From positions 81,579 to 145,578 of the forward strand of contig NZ_JBEBRB010000001.1 in NCBI RefSeq assembly GCF_040395035.1: a DNA stretch of 64,000 nucleotides, in the 5' to 3' direction. Below, piece after piece: positions 4,435-64,000 of the stretch (the stretch's first letter is position 1; each line of letters begins with the position of its first letter). Under the pieces are notes generated by a model. The model worked only from the letters and a program-made list of their open reading frames with translations. It ran no database searches and was not told where the DNA came from. This DNA is from Parapedobacter lycopersici (lineage in GTDB: Bacteria > Bacteroidota > Bacteroidia > Sphingobacteriales > Sphingobacteriaceae). The position numbers were made by a program, and so were the translations under genes.

Positions 4435-6834
4435 ATGAATCGATTCTTTCTCCTCCACATCAAGCCTATCCCCTTTTTTCGGGCGTTATTAAAACATCTT
4501 TTTTTAGTTGGCTTATTCAGTACCCTTTGGGGTCATCTTCATGCACAGGATACCGGCACATTGACCGGAAAGGTTACCGCCATAGATTCCCTTCCCCTTG
4601 ACAAGGCATCCGTTACCATTGAACGCACCGATTTAGGCACCACAACCGGCACAGACGGGAGATTTGAGTTCCATCTTCCTCCCGGTAAATACGATGTATG
4701 GATACGCACAGTCGGTTATCAGCCCTACCGGAAAACCGTTATTGTTGCACCGGGCAATGTCACTGTTATGGATGCGACATTACAGGAAGACCACCTCAAC
4801 TTAAATGAAGTTGTCGTCAGTGCCACCCGGTACGGCGTAGACCGTCGGGAGGCCCCGGTCATTGTAAATGTGATCAGCCCGAAAATATTCAATGCAACAC
4901 AGTCTGTCGCCATGTCTGAAACACTGAATTACCAACCGGGTGTACGCGTGGAGACCAACTGTCAGAATTGTGGATTTACGCAGGTAAGGCTCAATGGACT
5001 GGGGGGTGCATATTCGCAGATCCTGATCAATAGCCGGCCCGTGTTCAGCGCCCTTAGCAGTGTATACGGCCTTGATCAGATCCCTACCAGCATGGTCGAC
5101 CGCATTGAGGTGGTACGGAGTGGTGGATCAGCGCTATTCGGATCGAATGCCATTGCCGGAACCATCAATGTAATTACCAAGGACCCGGTGGAAAACACCT
5201 GGCAAATCGGTTCCACCAACGCACTGGTCGACGGCTCCAAATGGGACAACACCGTCGATTTCAATGCCTCGATCATCTCGGAGGATCTAGCCACGGGCGT
5301 AACTTTTTACGGCATGAACCGGAATCGGCAGGCATTTGATGCCAATGGCGACGGATTTACGGAAATGACGAAGCTGAAAAACACGACTTTTGGTGGAAAG
5401 GCATTTTATATGCCCTCCGATGTTAACCGAATAACGCTGGATTTCAGTGTGATAAACGAATTCCGCCGCGGGGGAGATCGCCTTGACCTAGCTCCGCATT
5501 TTACCGACATCACGGAACAACTGGATTATAGTACATTTTTGGGTGGATTTACATTCGACCATTACAGTACGGACTATAAAAGCAAGTTTTCAGCTTATAC
5601 TTCTGCTCAGAAAGGAAAACGGAATAGTTTCTATGGCGGCATGGGAGGAAACAGGACACCTGCGGACAGTTTACTGGCGAACAACGCCTACGGCCATACC
5701 GACGACCTGGCATGGGTAGGCGGATTGCAGTTCACACACACCTTTGCGAATGACGTGCTGACCGCGGGAGCCGAACATCAGCTCAACGACACCCAGGATG
5801 AAATCGCCGGATATGCCCGTTTAGTCGACCAGACCGCCAACAGTACCGGGCTTTATGCACAATACGAATGGAAACCAGTGCGTGCATTTACGGCGCTCGT
5901 GGGTGCACGCTATGATTATGTGACCATTAACGGCCGTTACACGCTCCATAACATCAACCGGACTGGCGACATCCGTACCGGTGTGCTCAGTCCACGGCTT
6001 ACGTTGCTGTACAACATGACCGACTACCTCCAGTTCCGGGGTGGTTACGCCCGGGGATTCCGGGCACCACAGGCGTTCAATGAAGACATGCACGTATCCT
6101 CAGTTGGAGGCCAGCAGGTGTTTGTCCTGATTTCCAACAACCTGAAAACAGAATATTCCAACGCATACACGGCGTCGTTAAATTTAATGAAAAATATTGG
6201 AGACATACAGTTCAGCGCATTGGTCGAAGGCTTTTACACCGATCTGCGCAACCCGTTTACAAATGTGTTATCAACGGAGCTGGCAGGTGTGCTGTTTGAG
6301 GAAATGCGGAATGGCGAGGGGGCCTATGTGACCGGCACTAACATCGAACTGAGTATGGCCCCGTCCGCCCGCTATAGCCTGCAGGCCGGAGGCACCGTGC
6401 AACGCTCGCATTATCGCGATGCCCAGGTACTGTTTGACGGCGCCGCGGGGCTCCCGCCAGTAACCACGGATGAATTTGTAAAATCGCCCGATGTATACGG
6501 CTATGTCAGCAGTAACTGGAAAGCAACCGACCAACTCAGCGTCGACGTAACCGGCACATACACAGGATCAATGATCGTTCCGCACGTGGTAAATGACAAC
6601 GCCTTCGTCCTATTGAAAAATACTCCGGAGTTTGTTGAGCTTAACATGCGCCTGGGTTATGTATTTAACGTCAGAAAAGACTTTAGCATAGAATTGAGCG
6701 GAGGGGTGCAAAACGTATTGAATAGCTATCAAAAAGATTTTGATACAGGTCCGGCGAGGGACGCTGACTATATTTACGGCCCGGCAAGGCCACGCACCTA
6801 TTTCCTGGGGTTAAAAATCGGACACTTCCATTAA
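4435..6834 (+). CDS. TonB-dependent outer-membrane receptor with N-terminal carboxypeptidase-regulatory-like domain and CQNC motif in the plug
   Basis: Signal peptide ending LHAQD, LNEVVVSATR TonB box, plug VETNCQNCGFTQVRLNGL...DRIEVVRSGGSALFGSNAIAGTINVITK, C-terminal PRTYFLGLKIGHF. ATG at 4435 preferred over TTG at 4429. Confidence 0.92.
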   Translation: MNRFFLLHIKPIPFFRALLKHLFLVGLFSTLWGHLHAQDTGTLTGKVTAIDSLPLDKASVTIERTDLGTTTGTDGRFEFHLPPGKYDVWIRTVGYQPYRKTVIVAPGNVTVMDATLQEDHLNLNEVVVSATRYGVDRREAPVIVNVISPKIFNATQSVAMSETLNYQPGVRVETNCQNCGFTQVRLNGLGGAYSQILINSRPVFSALSSVYGLDQIPTSMVDRIEVVRSGGSALFGSNAIAGTINVITKDPVENTWQIGSTNALVDGSKWDNTVDFNASIISEDLATGVTFYGMNRNRQAFDANGDGFTEMTKLKNTTFGGKAFYMPSDVNRITLDFSVINEFRRGGDRLDLAPHFTDITEQLDYSTFLGGFTFDHYSTDYKSKFSAYTSAQKGKRNSFYGGMGGNRTPADSLLANNAYGHTDDLAWVGGLQFTHTFANDVLTAGAEHQLNDTQDEIAGYARLVDQTANSTGLYAQYEWKPVRAFTALVGARYDYVTINGRYTLHNINRTGDIRTGVLSPRLTLLYNMTDYLQFRGGYARGFRAPQAFNEDMHVSSVGGQQVFVLISNNLKTEYSNAYTASLNLMKNIGDIQFSALVEGFYTDLRNPFTNVLSTELAGVLFEEMRNGEGAYVTGTNIELSMAPSARYSLQAGGTVQRSHYRDAQVLFDGAAGLPPVTTDEFVKSPDVYGYVSSNWKATDQLSVDVTGTYTGSMIVPHVVNDNAFVLLKNTPEFVELNMRLGYVFNVRKDFSIELSGGVQNVLNSYQKDFDTGPARDADYIYGPARPRTYFLGLKIGHFH

Positions 6835-29449: not shown

Positions 29450-29827
29450 ATGACAAAGCGAAACAAAATCATCTACTGGATCGCCACTTGCTGGTTGGCC
29501 CTGGGAATGCTTTCAACCGGAGTCGTGCAATTGATCAAAATGAAAGAGGAGATGGATGCAATGACTCTTCTGGGTTATCCGGCTTACTTACTTAGCATAT
29601 TGGGTACATGGAAGCTACTTGGTGTTATTGCCATACTTATCCCTAAATTTGCTTTACTTAAAGAATGGGCTTATGCCGGTTTCTTTTTTGCAATGACCGG
29701 AGCAATCGTCTCACACTTGATTATTGGAAATGGCGCAAAAGAACTTTTCGGACCTACGTTGTTACTTGTTCTCACCGTCGTTTCCTGGCTTTTTAGACCC
29801 GAAGGCAGAAAATTGCAGTTTAATTAA
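29450..29827 (+). CDS. DoxX-like family membrane protein (paralog of 61561-61962)
   Basis: KIIYWIAT, LGYPAY, LKEWAYAGFFF shared with the 61.5-kb copy. Confidence 0.88.
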   Translation: MTKRNKIIYWIATCWLALGMLSTGVVQLIKMKEEMDAMTLLGYPAYLLSILGTWKLLGVIAILIPKFALLKEWAYAGFFFAMTGAIVSHLIIGNGAKELFGPTLLLVLTVVSWLFRPEGRKLQFN

Positions 29828-58199: not shown

Positions 58200-59501
58200 A
58201 TGCAGGCAATTTACCTGGTCAGTATCAAAATTTACGGTTTATTTTTATGGCTGTTATCGCCCTTTCACGCCAAGGCCCGAAAGTGGGTCGGCGGTCGCCG
58301 GAATCTCCTGCACCGCATCGCACGGGAGGTTGATCCGGACCGCGGATGCATCTGGTTTCACTTTGCCTCACTGGGCGAGTTCGAGCAAGGACGCCCGGTA
58401 TTGGAGGCGTTGCGCGCCCGACGGACCGATAAGCCTTTTCTGGTCACTTTTTACTCGCCTTCGGGTTATGAAATCCGCAAAAACACCCCCTTGGCCGACC
58501 ACGTCTATTACCTGCCCGCCGACACCCCGCGCAATGCTCGCCGCTTTGTTGAACTGGTTAATCCCGAATTTGCGGTTTTCACCAAATACGAATACTGGCC
58601 GTATTATTTTCAGGCGCTGCACCGCAGGAACGTTCCCCTGTATCTGATTTCCGCTATTTTCCGGCCCGGACAGGTGTTCTTCCGCTGGTATGGGGGCCTG
58701 TTCCGCAAAGCACTCCGGTGCGTGACTTTCTTTTTCACCCAGAATGAAGAAAGCCTGCGGTTGCTGGCACCGCTGGGCCATACCAATGCCGTGCTTGCCG
58801 GGGATACCCGGTTCGACCGCGTGGTTACGCTGCCCCGGATGCGCAAAGAACTCCCCGGGATTGCAGACTTCGTAGCCGGTCATCCGGTGCTGGTCGCCGG
58901 CAGCACCTGGCCTGCAGACGAAGTCCTGCTCGCTGGTCTGCGCGGGCGGTATCCCGACTGGAAACTCATCCTTGCGCCGCATGAAATCCACGAAGAGCAC
59001 ATCCTTTCCATCGAAAAGCTATTTCCGGACAGCCAGCGGTATTCTCATATGAACGGAGGCACCGATCGGCTTTCAGTTACCGGAAATCAGGTCACCGGCC
59101 GCGCAACACCGGCCGTGGACCGTCGGCTATCAACCACCCTCATCATCGATAACATTGGTATGCTTTCCACGCTGTATGGTTACGGTCACGTAGCCTATAT
59201 CGGCGGCGGCTTTGGCAAGGGCATTCACAATACGCTGGAGGCGGCCACTTACGGCATTCCCGTTGTATTCGGCCCCAATTACCGGAAATTCCAGGAGGCA
59301 AAGGACCTGATCGTCGAAGGTGGCGGTTTCACGGTCGCGGACGCCGACGGACTGGCTGCGGTTTTTAACGAGCTGCAAACGGAGGGACAACGTCTCGTGG
59401 CCGGACGGAAGAGCGGGGCTTATGTGGCCCGCAAGGCCGGGGCCACAGCCATCATCATGGCAAAAATAGCGCCCGTACGGGAAAAAGGTTCCGGGAATTA
59501 A
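58200..59501 (+). CDS. waaA: 3-deoxy-D-manno-octulosonic acid (Kdo) transferase
   Basis: WFHFASLGEFEQG, GDTRFD, AGSTW, GGGFGKGIHNTLEAA, FGP. Confidence 0.92.
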   Translation: MQAIYLVSIKIYGLFLWLLSPFHAKARKWVGGRRNLLHRIAREVDPDRGCIWFHFASLGEFEQGRPVLEALRARRTDKPFLVTFYSPSGYEIRKNTPLADHVYYLPADTPRNARRFVELVNPEFAVFTKYEYWPYYFQALHRRNVPLYLISAIFRPGQVFFRWYGGLFRKALRCVTFFFTQNEESLRLLAPLGHTNAVLAGDTRFDRVVTLPRMRKELPGIADFVAGHPVLVAGSTWPADEVLLAGLRGRYPDWKLILAPHEIHEEHILSIEKLFPDSQRYSHMNGGTDRLSVTGNQVTGRATPAVDRRLSTTLIIDNIGMLSTLYGYGHVAYIGGGFGKGIHNTLEAATYGIPVVFGPNYRKFQEAKDLIVEGGGFTVADADGLAAVFNELQTEGQRLVAGRKSGAYVARKAGATAIIMAKIAPVREKGSGN

Positions 59502-60628
59502 TCGGTAAAAAACAGTTCCGAAGCGATGTGGTCGGCCAGCAGTTTTCCACTCCTGGTCAGTGTAGCCACCTCCTCCCTTACCAGGATATCCCCAGACTGC
59601 AGGAATGCCTGTAATGCTGCCGCGAGGACGAGCCGGCGCTCCCGGCCGAATTCAGTTTCAACAATCCGCAGATCAAGTCCCCAGACCGTCCGCAATGATG
59701 TCATAATGTACTCGTTCAATCGATCCCGGCTCGTCAGGAATTCACGTTCCCCGGGCAGTTTATTGTCCTGCAACGCCCGGAGGTATTTCACATTATTGCT
59801 TACATTCCATTGCCGCGTACCGCCATCAAAGGAATGGGCGGAGGGACCGACACCGAGGTAGGAAACACCCCTCCAATAGTTGCTGTTGTGCCTTGCGTAG
59901 CGCCCTTCCCGGGCGAAATTCGATATTTCGTATTGGATATACCCGGCCTGGTCCAGCGCATCCATCAGGTATTCAAATTGCACCGCACTTTGCTGCTCGT
60001 CCATCGGCCGCTGCTTCCCTTTCCGGATCAGGGCCGCCAACGCGGTCTGCGGTTCCACAGTCATGCTGTATGCAGAAATGTGCGGCACATTAAATGCAAG
60101 CATTTTTGCCACGTTCCGCTGCCACTTCTCGTTGGTGAGCAATGGATAACCATAAATCAGGTCGGCCGTGATATTGTCAAAACCGGCATCCTGAAGCCGT
60201 TTTATCGCAGTTTCGGCGTCCGCAGCCCCGTGTGCGCGGTTCATCCAGCGCAGGTCCTCCTCAAAAAATGACTGAATGCCAACGCTCAGGCGATTCACCG
60301 GTGTATCGCGAAGCCCGGCAATGAAACCGGCATGCAAATCATCCGGATTGGCCTCCAGTGTGATTTCGGCGCCCGATGACACCGGAAATAGATCCGTCAC
60401 GGTTCCAAGCAGTCGCCGTATTTCATCCGGCGCGAGCAGTGAAGGGGTGCCCCCGCCGAAATAAATGGTTTCGACGGGCTCATTGCCCAGGTATGCCTTC
60501 CGCAGGTTCAATTCGCGCTGCATGGCGTCGATCATTTCATCGCGGTATTTCAGCGAAGTGCTGAAATGAAAATCGCAGTAATGACACGCCTGCTTACAAA
60601 AAGGAATATGAAAATAAATACCCGCCAT
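59498..60628 (-). CDS. hemW: Radical SAM heme chaperone HemW
   Basis: YFHIPFCKQACHYCDF (CX3CX2C), YFGGGTPS, YEISNF, HNSNYW. Confidence 0.93.
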   Translation of the reverse strand: MAGIYFHIPFCKQACHYCDFHFSTSLKYRDEMIDAMQRELNLRKAYLGNEPVETIYFGGGTPSLLAPDEIRRLLGTVTDLFPVSSGAEITLEANPDDLHAGFIAGLRDTPVNRLSVGIQSFFEEDLRWMNRAHGAADAETAIKRLQDAGFDNITADLIYGYPLLTNEKWQRNVAKMLAFNVPHISAYSMTVEPQTALAALIRKGKQRPMDEQQSAVQFEYLMDALDQAGYIQYEISNFAREGRYARHNSNYWRGVSYLGVGPSAHSFDGGTRQWNVSNNVKYLRALQDNKLPGEREFLTSRDRLNEYIMTSLRTVWGLDLRIVETEFGRERRLVLAAALQAFLQSGDILVREEVATLTRSGKLLADHIASELFFTD

Positions 60629-60884
60629 TTTTGATCCAACGATAAATGATATAAATAACGGAAGACAATTACATCATCTTCGTTAATAATCTTATTGAAG
60701 TGATTTAAACTTTTTTGATGCAAGACAAGCGGTCCAAAAGCTATAATTTAAAATTATCACACTACAAAATTACGGTCAAATGAACTGCAAGTACGCGAAA
60801 CTACTGTAATCGTCAGCAAAAGTGGACATATTTATCGCTATCTAAGAGCAGATTTCGTTAATAAAGTTACTGATTCCTGCGTTG

Positions 60885-60991
60885 GATCGTTGGGTTTTCG
60901 TTGTTTGAATATTTGATACCTTCATTTATTTAAACGCTTAGGTTCTTGAATTTCCCCATTTCCAAACGACTAAATTTGCCTGCCGTTATGT
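60885..60991 (-). repeat. Truncated attC-like hairpin remnant downstream of the low-GC cassette
   Basis: Minus strand starts ACATAAC (60991-60985); inner arms 60962-60969 / 60887-60894 pair 7 of 8; distal GTTA end not found. Confidence 0.4.
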
Positions 60992-61095
60992 TCAAGTAAA
61001 ACAATGATGATCTAATTTTAGTAACAGTTGCCGTGCATCTTGCAGTTAATGTGTCGCTTGTGCTTTTTCAATCCGAGCTAACTAGATTGATTATT

Positions 61096-61557
61096 TTAAT
61101 ACGCTCCTTTTATGACAAAAAATGACCCTCTAATGGTTCCCGCCAACTTAGATTTTTGGCGAGCAAATTTGAATTTGCTCAATTCCTCCGGCACTTCCAT
61201 TCCTTCGGAAAGTTTAAATCCTACAGCCCTTTTTTTCGGATTGTCAAGTGGGTATAAAACATTAATTCCAAGGCCGCTTTCGTAAAAAACGAACACCCAT
61301 TTTATATTTTCAACCTGCAATGTTGCTGTTTCCAAGGGTTTCGATGCGATCACTATACCGCGCTCTTCCTTTAATATTTTATGAACCCACGCGATTGTTT
61401 CAATGCTTTCATCGGCTGGCGTAACACTAAATTCCGTGTTGTATTTATTCATAAAATATCGTGCTTCATTTGCACGTAAACCAGCAAGCGCTGCTGCAAC
61501 AGGAGATGACGCTAAGCCTGTTATGGACACATTTTTAAAATCTATCGTTGTTGTCAT
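61096..61557 (-). CDS. Conserved-looking hypothetical protein
   Basis: 153-aa ORF (ALAGLRANEARYFMNKY, KRAVGFKLSEGM, GTIRGSFF), 3 nt after the DoxX stop; no function recognised. Confidence 0.75.
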   Translation of the reverse strand: MTTTIDFKNVSITGLASSPVAAALAGLRANEARYFMNKYNTEFSVTPADESIETIAWVHKILKEERGIVIASKPLETATLQVENIKWVFVFYESGLGINVLYPLDNPKKRAVGFKLSEGMEVPEELSKFKFARQKSKLAGTIRGSFFVIKGAY

Positions 61558-61560
61558 ATT

Positions 61561-61962
61561 TTATAATTTATTTGTTATTAGGATGATTTTTCTGTCCGAA
61601 GGTCTGAAATACCAGGAAATTGCAATCAGCACAAGGTAAAGTAAAGAAGGCAATATCAAATTGAAAGTATCGCCCGATGCAATGTGTGAATATAAGGCCC
61701 CGGTTACGGTGAAGAAGATACCCGCATAAGCCCATTCTTTCAGCAATGGAAATTTTGGAATAAGAAATGCAATCACACCCAGTATTTTCCATATTCCGAG
61801 TAGTGTAAGAATGTAAGCGGGATAACCTAAATGTGTTAGGTTTTCTTCGGTACCCGGCCCGTCAGCCTGTATCCTAAATAGCTGAATAATGGCGGTAGAT
61901 ACCATACCCAGACATAACCACACGGTTGCTATCCAATAAATTATTTTATCTCTTTTTTTCAT
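61561..61962 (-). CDS. DoxX-like family membrane protein (paralog of 29450-29827)
   Basis: KIIYWIAT, LGYPAY, LKEWAYAG. Confidence 0.88.
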   Translation of the reverse strand: MKKRDKIIYWIATVWLCLGMVSTAIIQLFRIQADGPGTEENLTHLGYPAYILTLLGIWKILGVIAFLIPKFPLLKEWAYAGIFFTVTGALYSHIASGDTFNLILPSLLYLVLIAISWYFRPSDRKIILITNKL

Positions 61963-61968
61963 GCTTTG

Positions 61969-62433
61969 CTATTTTAATCTGTTTACTATTTCTTGTAGTT
62001 TATTGTGAGCCATATTAAGTCCATACGCAAATGGAAGTTTTAATTGTTCTGCTCTATGTTGCTCCGACCTGTAAATGATTTGTATTGTCAATTTGCTTGT
62101 ATCATCTGTCAGTTTTTCAAATTCCAAAAATTCAAGTTGAGCGCCTATAGACATATTTTCCATTTCAAATGTCCGTATGATCTTCTGGTTTGACACAAAT
62201 TCGTGTATTGTCCCGTTTGCACGGAAAACAACAGTTCCGTTGTGCGACGTTTCAAAAGCATAAGAACCGTGTTTTTTGTTGTCTAATTTCAACACTTTTG
62301 CTCCCATCCATTGTTCAACAAGTTCTGGTTCTTCATAAGCTTTAAAAAGCAATTCCAAGGGCAAATCAAATTCTCGTACAATCGTTAATTCCTGTTTGCC
62401 TTCTTCAGCTACAATTTTGGTTTTTTGCTCCAT
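61969..62433 (-). CDS. SRPBCC / AHSA1-like (CalC-type) protein
   Basis: ELTIVREFDLPLELLFKAY..PELVEQW, IIRTFEME; standard partner of ArsR. Confidence 0.88.
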   Translation of the reverse strand: MEQKTKIVAEEGKQELTIVREFDLPLELLFKAYEEPELVEQWMGAKVLKLDNKKHGSYAFETSHNGTVVFRANGTIHEFVSNQKIIRTFEMENMSIGAQLEFLEFEKLTDDTSKLTIQIIYRSEQHRAEQLKLPFAYGLNMAHNKLQEIVNRLK

Positions 62434-62434
62434 T

Positions 62435-62758
62435 TCATTTTTTGTTTTTATAATGCTTCATTAGGGATTCTAATTTATTGAACCTGTCGTCCCACATTTT
62501 GCGGAAAGGCGCTAAAAAATCGTCCACGGCTTTCATTTTTTCGGGATTAAGTTGATAATGAATTTCCCTCCCATTTTGTTCTTGTTTGAGCAAATCACAT
62601 TCAGTTAATATTTTAATGTGGTTAGAAATCGTGGGTCGCGAATAATCAAAATTAGCAGCGATAGCGCCTGCCGGCATTGCCTGAGTAGCAAGCAACAATA
62701 AAATTGCCCGCCTTGTGGGGTCGGAAATTGCTTGAAATACGTCTCTTCTTGTTTTCAT
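62435..62758 (-). CDS. ArsR/SmtB-family transcriptional regulator
   Basis: [35 protein letters not shown]. Confidence 0.93.
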
Positions 62759-62761
62759 ATT

Positions 62762-62803
62762 GAAGTCATTTGGCTACAAATGTAAGCGTAGTCATTTAAC
62801 TAC
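62762..62803. promoter_or_regulatory. ArsR-type operator (two 16-bp boxes, 26-bp period) overlapping -7 element
   Basis: Minus strand GTAGTTAAATGACTAC (62803-62788) and GTAGCCAAATGACTTC (62777-62762), with TAcaTTTG between them. Confidence 0.65.
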
Positions 62804-62889
62804 ACAAGTTTTTGTTCATTTTTTTCAGTTAGCATTTTGTAGAAATGGTTTTGATGGGGCTTTGTCGTGGTTTAATGTCTATTAGCCCT

Positions 62890-63021
62890 GCCTATAACGG
62901 CTCAAGTCTTTGCGTTCCGACGGGTTGGAGTACAAAGTTTCAATGTATTGCTAAAGTTTAATAGAAGCACGAAGTCAAGTTTGCATGTCAGTCCGTCTGA
63001 CTCAAAACCCGTGTCAGTGGC
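62890..63021 (-). repeat. 132-bp attC-like imperfect hairpin upstream of the low-GC cassette
   Basis: Minus strand GCCACTGAC...GTTATAGGC ends; inner arms tttgagtcagacgg / ccgtcggaacgcaaa pair 12 of 14 with one extrahelical A. Confidence 0.6.
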
Positions 63022-63179
63022 CCTGGTTATCAGTATCGTTTTAAATGTCGGCCATTATTCAGTGCCAAAGCTAACCTGGAGATCAGAATTAACTTGTTCC
63101 GCAGGAAGCTTTCATTTTTTTATGTTTCTTTGCGCAAGAAACATAGCCGGATGATCGCTCCTGCTAAACTGATTCCAAT

Positions 63180-64000
63180 ATGGCACACAGCAACAAGTCC
63201 TCCGTTTTTCTTTACCTGGGTTTATTATTTAGCGCCTGTCAATTGACAGAAAATGCAAAACAGGAGGGCACCGGGGGATCAATTCCACCTACCGCCGAAG
63301 CAACGGAACAGCCGGCAATGCCGGCAGCGGAACCTTCTTCCGACGGCAGGGTTGATTCCGCCGTCTACTGGGCGGGGTTGCATGCACTGGCTCATGGCGA
63401 TACCACCGGAAGGTGGCCCGTAGCGGACCAGCCGATTCCGCTTAAAGGGGCTGTATTGCCCGGCAAACGGATCATCGCCTATTATGGAAACCTATATTCC
63501 CGTCAGATGGGTATTCTTGGTGAACTGCCCCCTGTGCAAATGCTGGATAAACTGGATGCCGAAGTGGCTGCCTGGAATGCAGCGGATACGGGTATTCCGG
63601 CAGTTCCCGCACTCCATTACATTGCCGTCACCGCACAGGGCAGTCCCGGACGGGACGGCAAACACCGGCTGCGCATGCCATTCAGCCAGATCGATTCCGT
63701 GCTTCGCATTGCCAAAAAAAGAGATGCGCTGGTCTTTCTGGACATCCAGGTCGGCTTCAGCACGCTGGAAGACGAGATCCCGCGCCTCGACACCTTTCTG
63801 CGTATGCCGCACGTGCACCTGGGTATTGACCCTGAATTTTCCATGAAAGAAGACCTACCCCCGGGCAAACGGATTGGCTCATTTACCGCTAAGGACATCA
63901 ATTTTGCCGCCGCGCATCTTGCCAAACTGGTCCGCAACAATAACCTCCCTCCCAAGGTCCTTGTGGTGCATCGCTTTACCCAGGGTATGATTAAGGATTA
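63180..64000 (+). CDS. Lipoprotein of unknown function, 3' truncated by window edge (not in ORF track)
   Basis: Manual translation MAHSNKSSVFLYLGLLFSAC...IIAYYGN...HLGIDPEFSMK...VLVVHRFT, open to the end of the window. Confidence 0.8.
   Translation, partial: MAHSNKSSVFLYLGLLFSACQLTENAKQEGTGGSIPPTAEATEQPAMPAAEPSSDGRVDSAVYWAGLHALAHGDTTGRWPVADQPIPLKGAVLPGKRIIAYYGNLYSRQMGILGELPPVQMLDKLDAEVAAWNAADTGIPAVPALHYIAVTAQGSPGRDGKHRLRMPFSQIDSVLRIAKKRDALVFLDIQVGFSTLEDEIPRLDTFLRMPHVHLGIDPEFSMKEDLPPGKRIGSFTAKDINFAAAHLAKLVRNNNLPPKVLVVHRFTQGMIKD

Follow-up and report, generated by a model that had tools for sequence, protein, structure and literature searches.

A solitary, probably degraded attC-type site from an integron-like cassette system in Parapedobacter lycopersici

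The closest published system to the one considered here is rAID-1 (recombinase-associated acquired interbacterial defence) of gut Bacteroidales (Ross et al. 2019, bioRxiv 10.1101/471110); among 423 Bacteroidales genomes, 226 have it. A XerD-like recombinase is encoded at its 5' end, co-directional with short low-GC genes, and its intergenic repeats were described as 'reminiscent of integrons' (10.1101/471110). rAID-1 was delimited by a recombinase at least 44% identical to B. fragilis BF9343_RS08045, by at least two co-directional downstream genes with a G+C content of 41% or less, and by conserved intergenic motifs (10.1101/471110); a 2025 follow-up treats the mechanism of rAID biogenesis as an open question (10.1101/2025.05.03.651265). 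A second point of reference is provided by integrons, whose attC sites are known from cassette arrays, from CALINs and as single orphan sites (Cury et al. 2016; IntegronFinder 2.0, PMC9024848).

We analysed a 64,000-nucleotide stretch of the Parapedobacter lycopersici genome (the window), in which an earlier note had picked out positions 62890-63021 as the recombination site of an uncharacterised cassette system. A cassette system is indeed what the site belongs to, although not a wholly uncharacterised one, rAID-1 having been published in 2019 (bioRxiv 10.1101/471110). We consider it very probable that the window site is a solitary, mutationally degraded attC-type member of this system and an inactive fossil in its present genome. 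The reading in the earlier note is largely right, and the window copy is most likely an orphaned and decayed representative of a Xer-type, integron-like cassette system already described in outline.

The explanation that we propose runs as follows. In intact Bacteroidia systems each cassette, consisting of one or several genes, would terminate in such a site, whose strand antisense to the genes would probably form a long hairpin with imperfect pairing. A tyrosine recombinase related to Xer and IntI and encoded beside the array would cut and rejoin at the conserved AAC/GTT, and cassettes would exit as circles and then re-enter. In the window, the site and an ArsR-SRPBCC-DoxX cassette would have come jointly in a foreign fragment of 2.4 kb and low G+C whose ends do not coincide with the crossover points of the site, and the site would then have decayed without a cognate recombinase.

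The window site and its structured family

Covariance model R1, built from related copies and describing a family of about 137 nt in length, matches the window within one base of the coordinates in the earlier note. The site and its two outer boxes are:

62890..63022, minus strand: probable degraded attC-type folded recombination site (R1 covariance model, 118.4 bits, E 1e-29 to 1e-31)
about 63013/63014..63022, minus strand: R'' box, GCCACTGAC (63014-63022), ..CCACTGAC (63013..63022), with AAC mutated to GAC
62890..62898, minus strand: R' box, GTTATAGGC, with GTT intact

The canonical orientation of the site is the minus strand, which is also the direction of the cassette genes. The architecture that had been read from the letters is reproduced in full by the model alignment: paired outer boxes, a one-sided unpaired spacer of 5 nt, an inner stem with 12 of 14 pairs and one bulged base, and a long AT-rich loop. 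Across the whole consensus the window site retains 28 of 37 pairs (the family median is 31), among them 13 of the 17 inner-stem pairs. Plus-strand position 63015 is a C in the window site and a T in 72-75 of 77 relatives, so that the minus-strand AAC reads GAC, as the earlier note had it. In the alignment of 77 relatives this R'' triplet pair is A-T in 72 copies and is broken in only four, the window site among them. The motif TAAC...GTTA as a whole is kept in 72-75 of the 77 family copies.

Folding of both strands as DNA, which had been suggested as a check, gave a divided answer. The window copy lies at the level of shuffled sequences (z -0.35 for the plus strand and +0.11 for the minus strand), and the window hairpin by itself is therefore no evidence; intact copies folded as single-stranded DNA reach z values of -3.3 to -6.8. 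Whereas the hairpin alone does not rise above chance, the homology of the site to a structured family (118 bits) is far above it.

Copies 75-85% identical to window positions 62882-63021 turned up in a DNA search of relatives; they come from several families within the class, and several lie at contig ends. Seven aligned copies have a mean column identity of 90% (consensus ..CTAACGGTTTnGGGCTTTGCGTTCGGGCGGG...CCCGCCTGACGCAAAACCCGTGTTA..). Of 151 Bacteroidia genomes sampled, 90 (about 60%) have R1 matches, and the link to Flavobacteriales and Sphingobacteriales drawn in the earlier note agrees with loci of Flavobacterium, Pedobacter, Algoriphagus, Runella and Chitinophagaceae.

We next turn to the conservation of the fold. 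In the 77-copy alignment, 88% of pair cells hold standard pairs, compared with 39-46% when the partners are slid by 1-3 columns, and both sides have changed at 34 of the 37 pairs, values that none of 500 shuffles reached; the alignment was fitted to the model, which biases the pair counts towards it, and the margin over the slid controls is large despite this. The long inner stem is paired in 92-96% of cells, with several alternative pair types at most positions. G.T cells on the modelled strand number 327, against 74 A.C cells (which correspond to G.T on the other strand); this asymmetry comes from few positions of the same model-fitted alignment, and it points to the strand antisense to the genes as the one that would fold, as in integrons. 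Copies lacking, or copies present without compensatory changes or a gene-flanking arrangement, were the outcomes that the earlier note had named as fatal to its reading; the copies exist, the compensatory changes are there, and same-strand arrays between ORFs are found in relatives, as described below.

Conservation also extends past the boxes. At cassette starts, GTTA is followed after 10-25 nt by a ..ATTTTAtGACGACA-like motif, and a purine-rich, GAAAGAAAAC-like run precedes the R'' box; both were seen in arrays L047-L052, L070 and others. The R boxes of the family pair over about 9-12 nt.

The genome that carries the window (3.04 Mb in 130 contigs) contains no cognate array-type recombinase, its best matches being ordinary Xer proteins of at most 35% identity, and it holds two copies of the site family in total, the window site and one weak copy on another contig. 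The imperfect hairpin of an attC site, with spacer, bulges, variable loop and conserved structure, is present in the window copy; the conserved pair of AAC in R'' and GTT in R' is not, since R'' reads GAC. That GAC signals inactivation, as suggested in the earlier note, is plausible, and the additional breaks in the stem agree with it. Given the lack of a cognate recombinase, the change of AAC to GAC and the loss of several stem pairs, the window copy is most likely an inactive fossil.

Cassette arrays in relatives and the recombinase beside them

Four genomes picked at random from those with R1 matches were surveyed for the arrangement of sites. Each of these Bacteroidia genomes contains same-strand arrays of 5-14 sites spaced 0.3-4.5 kb apart. 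All sizeable ORFs between array sites are encoded on the other strand from the model, each with a stop codon that abuts the model's GTTA end, and the natural orientation of the site is therefore the reverse complement of the model. In the arrays, a site thus comes after every gene or group of genes. The window site differs from these arrays in being single and in lying 5' of its adjacent genes.

At all ten junctions of the array in genome G092, the bases that lie 5' of TAAC in a given site can pair with those 3' of GTTA in the site before it, perfectly or with one mismatch across the 8-10 bases compared, and the outer bases are not complementary to the partner within their own site. The same neighbour-site complementarity is found in the array of G017, a member of the window's own genus. 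In integrons, the two ends of one cassette make up a single site in the excised circle. By analogy, we take the complementarity of cassette ends as the mark of circular cassettes that would be cut at AAC/GTT, and it argues for a crossover at or beside these triplets. The relatives' arrays thus have the same-orientation sites 3' of ORFs and the complementary cassette ends of attC arrays.

The cargo of the G092 array (L047, contig C1, 137-16983) includes an AAA_21/DUF4435 ATPase, a PIF1-like helicase with TPR repeats, a DnaJ-domain protein and an ORC/CDC6-like protein, together with many ORFs without a family. It looks like accessory or defence cargo that goes beyond immunity genes.

A conserved, covarying hairpin directly 3' of ORFs could also act in RNA, as an intrinsic terminator or as a processing or stabilising element, with no DNA recombination at all, and rAID genes have been reported to be highly expressed (10.1101/2025.05.03.651265). 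The conserved G.T pairs, however, are on the antisense strand and would be C.A mismatches in the mRNA. An intrinsic terminator consists of a short GC-rich hairpin and a T-run, and neither a terminator-like match nor a T-run was found within 62890-63022. Neither the window region nor six intact copies gave a relevant match in Rfam, and a tRNA/tmRNA scan found no gene near the island. An RNA role would, moreover, leave unexplained both the pairing of outer bases between neighbouring sites and the strict linkage to a recombinase. We regard it as very unlikely, and the preferred reading is that of a DNA recombination site.

A tyrosine recombinase of 360-380 aa is encoded at one end of the arrays. 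Its best curated family is NF040815 of NCBIfam ('site-specific tyrosine recombinase/integron integrase', of XerA type), with 213-222 bits against a cut-off of 220, and its best matches in the PDB are the archaeal XerA proteins 4a8e and 5hxy. When compared with VchIntIA (2a3v), it has 21 residues in place of the 63 of IntI residues 180-242, and therefore lacks the IntI-specific domain. It also carries an N-terminal extension of about 95 aa that has no Pfam match.

In a scan of species-representative genomes, at least 588 loci encode relatives of this recombinase, with named hosts in Flavobacterium, Chitinophaga, Pedobacter, Algoriphagus, Polaribacter, Runella, Paludibacter, Muribaculaceae and Bacteroides. 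Searching 54 of the recombinase loci with the site model gave 44 hits in 19 loci. All 44 lie downstream of the recombinase and in a single orientation, and the upstream flanks (about 10 kb in most of the 54 loci) gave no site hits. In most loci the recombinase and the cassettes point in the same direction. The window's own genus has a more distant 362-aa subfamily that is divergent from its array, and one genome (G105) has a truncated 246-aa copy that is likewise divergent. Both co-directional and divergent orientations occur among integrons.

Several further features of these loci were observed. Divergent and co-directional arrangements can be contrasted in G015:C28, G016:C102 and G105:C2 on the one hand and G092:C1 and G172:C35 on the other. 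Two recombinase loci, L091 and L144, bear the labels of MAGs from Azoarcus sp. and Rhodobacteraceae; mis-binning of the contigs is the probable reason, and transfer beyond Bacteroidota is possible. In a Paludibacter MAG (L125, 11827-11902) about 170 nt separate the stop codon of the recombinase from a 76-nt hairpin, CATAACGG...GGTGTTATGG, which has the orientation opposite to that of weak array sites further downstream and is a candidate for a primary (attI-like) site.

With a recombinase of this kind at the end of the arrays, they might be taken for sedentary chromosomal integrons or CALINs, whose classical attC sites are served by a true IntI. The AAC...GTT boxes, asymmetric spacer, imperfect stem, variable loop and complementary cassette ends are all present, and the adjacent recombinase reaches 190-208 bits on the integron integrase model TIGR02249. 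These scores nevertheless fall short of the cut-off of 265, the match is split into two pieces, the IntI-specific domain that marks the cognate integrase of an attC site is missing, and the closest structural relatives by sequence are archaeal XerA proteins. The roughly 137 nt of conserved sequence across families is also unlike attC sites in general. A CALIN, furthermore, comprises at least two neighbouring sites without an integrase, and the window holds one site even with search filters off. In surveys with IntegronFinder, Bacteroidetes have essentially no integrons outside Salinibacter (PMC9024848), against 90 of 151 genomes for the present family. Classical integrons are in our view an improbable explanation, and a separate site family with a Xer-type recombinase accounts better for these observations.

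The lack of signal in the single-sequence fold, and the presence of two copies in its own genome, would also suit a chance hairpin or a REP- or MITE-like dispersed repeat unconnected with cassette exchange. REP and MITE repeats are numerous in a genome and scattered over both strands. The sites described here, by contrast, are few and stand in same-strand tandem arrays beside one recombinase family, they have neither terminal inverted repeats of their own nor target duplications, and the window copy matches the model with an E value of about 1e-29. The many dispersed copies, and the own terminal repeats or RAYT or transposase, by which REP, BIME or MITE elements are recognised do not apply to the window site. 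We hold such an origin to be extremely improbable and retain the assignment to the cassette system.

The low-GC island and its arrival

The window site lies near one end of a segment of low G+C content, the features of which are:

60624-60629 and 63051-63056: direct GCCATT repeats flanking the island
60630..63050: low-GC island of 2.4 kb, 35-40% G+C compared with 54-60% in the flanks; absent from G001
62435..62758, minus strand: ArsR-family repressor, first cassette gene (Pfam HTH_20, HTH_5)
61969..62433, minus strand: SRPBCC/AHSA1-like protein, second cassette gene (Pfam AHSA1)
61561..61962, minus strand: DoxX-like membrane protein, third cassette gene (Pfam DoxX_2)
61096..61557, minus strand: 153-aa ORF without a family match, in the position of the DUF1801/OmdA gene of G017 and G028
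60697..60804, plus strand: 108-nt left-end fragment of an IS5-family element inside the island, 82-84% identical to G016 and G009

In the nearest relative (G001) a HemN-like gene directly adjoins the downstream gene and both flanks align at 93%, so that window positions 60630-63050 are an extra 2.4 kb relative to that genome. The island was also found, in the same flanking context, on six metagenome contigs. The opposite polarity, a deletion in G001 instead of an insertion in the window genome, is possible, G001 being the only close comparator; other members of the genus are too divergent beyond the HemN gene to polarise the event.

The four co-directional genes of the island have 33-43% G+C, and no recombinase is encoded upstream of them. 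In G017 the ArsR-SRPBCC-DoxX genes form, together with a DUF1801/OmdA gene, one cassette between two array sites, and in a genome from another family (G028) the same ArsR-SRPBCC-DoxX block stands beside a site in which GTT is mutated to GCT. A motif ..ACCACGACA.. downstream of the R' box is common to the window site and the G028 copy. DNA homology of the island to the G028 block ends at 61585, inside the DoxX gene, and to the left of this point lie the 153-aa ORF and the IS5-family fragment. The ArsR cassette starts with the bases 3' of the R' box (minus strand), and the window site is the site upstream of the ArsR cassette, not the 3' site of its adjacent genes.

A second site that would close the ArsR cassette was sought with the model, filters off, and none was found in 59500-64000; nor was a good match found to the expected complement GCCTATAAC. 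The sequences GTTATG/CATAAC near 60985 were considered as a closing site and set aside, as they form no significant hairpin (z +0.49 to -1.45).

In the gap between the site and the ArsR gene (62759-62889) there are two direct repeats that contain AAATGACT and probably form an ArsR operator. The same gap holds a TAcaTTTG motif of the Bacteroidota -7 type, and the ArsR cassette seems to bring its own regulated promoter. A segment 33 kb upstream in the window (29573-29688) is 78% identical in DNA to the DoxX part of the island and, judging from this identity, represents a second, older copy of the ArsR-SRPBCC-DoxX module.

The segment 60693-60804 had the appearance of a MITE, a candidate that was rejected when G016 showed it to be the left end of an IS5-family element. 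In G016 and G009, both of the same genus, the matching sequence lies just upstream of orfA of a DUF4096 transposase. In G016, an IS4-type element is inserted into this left end. The IS5-family fragment may bear on how the island was assembled.

The window site itself was considered as the mediator of island insertion, and this was rejected because the junctions are the GCCATT repeats and not AAC/GTT. The island ends about 30 nt beyond the site on one side and 2.3 kb away from it on the other. As the junctions lie outside the boxes of the site, the fragment entered by another route; an event associated with an IS, or illegitimate recombination at the 6 bp of microhomology, would be examples. 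Near both island ends there is a weak inverted match of 7 nt, AACGATA, and chance suffices to account for it.

A second solitary cassette was observed on another contig of the same genome (C82, L165; 5691-6444), where a gene for a 199-aa OmdA/YdeI-like protein precedes a site at 6317-6453. G001 lacks this cassette and has 29 bp instead. The right junction of the cassette is located precisely behind the G of GTT in the site, and its left junction follows the target sequence GCAAC.

Comparison with known systems

The likeness to integrons covers the AAC...GTT boxes, the asymmetric unpaired spacer, the imperfect stem and variable loop, the location of sites at the 3' end of ORFs in arrays, and a recombinase that is co-directional or divergent. 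The start of each cassette is complementary to the R'' box of its own site, which implies crossover at GTT and circular intermediates, and the bottom strand may be the folding strand here too. The differences are an array recombinase without the IntI-specific domain and with an N-terminal extension of about 95 aa, extensive primary sequence kept across families, longer paired R boxes of about 9-12 nt, and cassettes that are often multi-gene. On present sequence comparisons, membership of the classical integrons fails on the integrase. Standard integron tools seem not to register these arrays, since surveys with IntegronFinder report essentially no Bacteroidetes integrons (PMC9024848).

For Xer systems, the likeness lies in the recombinase, whose best sequence match is XerA. 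Xer systems, however, resolve dimers at a single short, double-stranded dif site in each replicon, and arrays of 137-nt hairpin sites between accessory genes are not their substrate. The window genome, for its part, retains ordinary Xer genes and is without the array type.

Whether the site family and its XerA-like recombinase amount to a second, independently built integron-type gene-capture machine, common across Bacteroidota and with rAID-1 as its gut-Bacteroidales branch, is a question on which we see the chances as about even. Classical integrases read extrahelical bases with the IntI-specific domain. In a second machine, folded single-stranded sites would be recombined without this domain, and the N-terminal extension of about 95 aa or the longer R boxes might give specificity. 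Orphan sites would then be footprints of cassette traffic into enzyme-less genomes.

Integron surveys find almost nothing in Bacteroidetes, and yet a site family with the full signature is present in about 60% of the Bacteroidia sampled, beside a non-IntI recombinase. The work on rAID-1 noted integron-like repeats and left the mechanism open; the present results yield testable predictions, namely a folded bottom-strand substrate, a cut at AAC/GTT and circular cassettes, which rest on the complementarity of cassette ends, a fold conserved through compensatory changes and the G.T strand bias. The window copy suggests that sites and cassettes also reach enzyme-less genomes by routes other than the sites themselves, and decay there.

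The differences from rAID-1 concern where the system is found and what it carries. rAID-1 was defined in Bacteroidales and by orphan immunity cargo, whereas the present family occurs in Flavobacteriales, Chitinophagales, Cytophagales and Sphingobacteriales and carries cargo of a general accessory and defence-like kind. The window carries the ArsR-SRPBCC-DoxX genes and the 153-aa ORF instead of orphan immunity genes, and has one site and no recombinase. A folded-site model, as used here, is not part of either description of rAID (10.1101/471110; 10.1101/2025.05.03.651265). On the other side of the comparison, the arrays of the relatives combine a Xer-like recombinase with co-directional low-GC genes and repeated intergenic sequences, and the G+C content of the island (35-40%) is inside the rAID limit of 41%. 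Homologues of the recombinase with 41-50% identity occur in Bacteroides, Muribaculaceae and Paludibacter, and the Paludibacter locus has three weak site-model hits downstream. Architecture, low G+C content and the Bacteroidales homologues would all fit a kinship between rAID-1 and the system to which the window site belongs.
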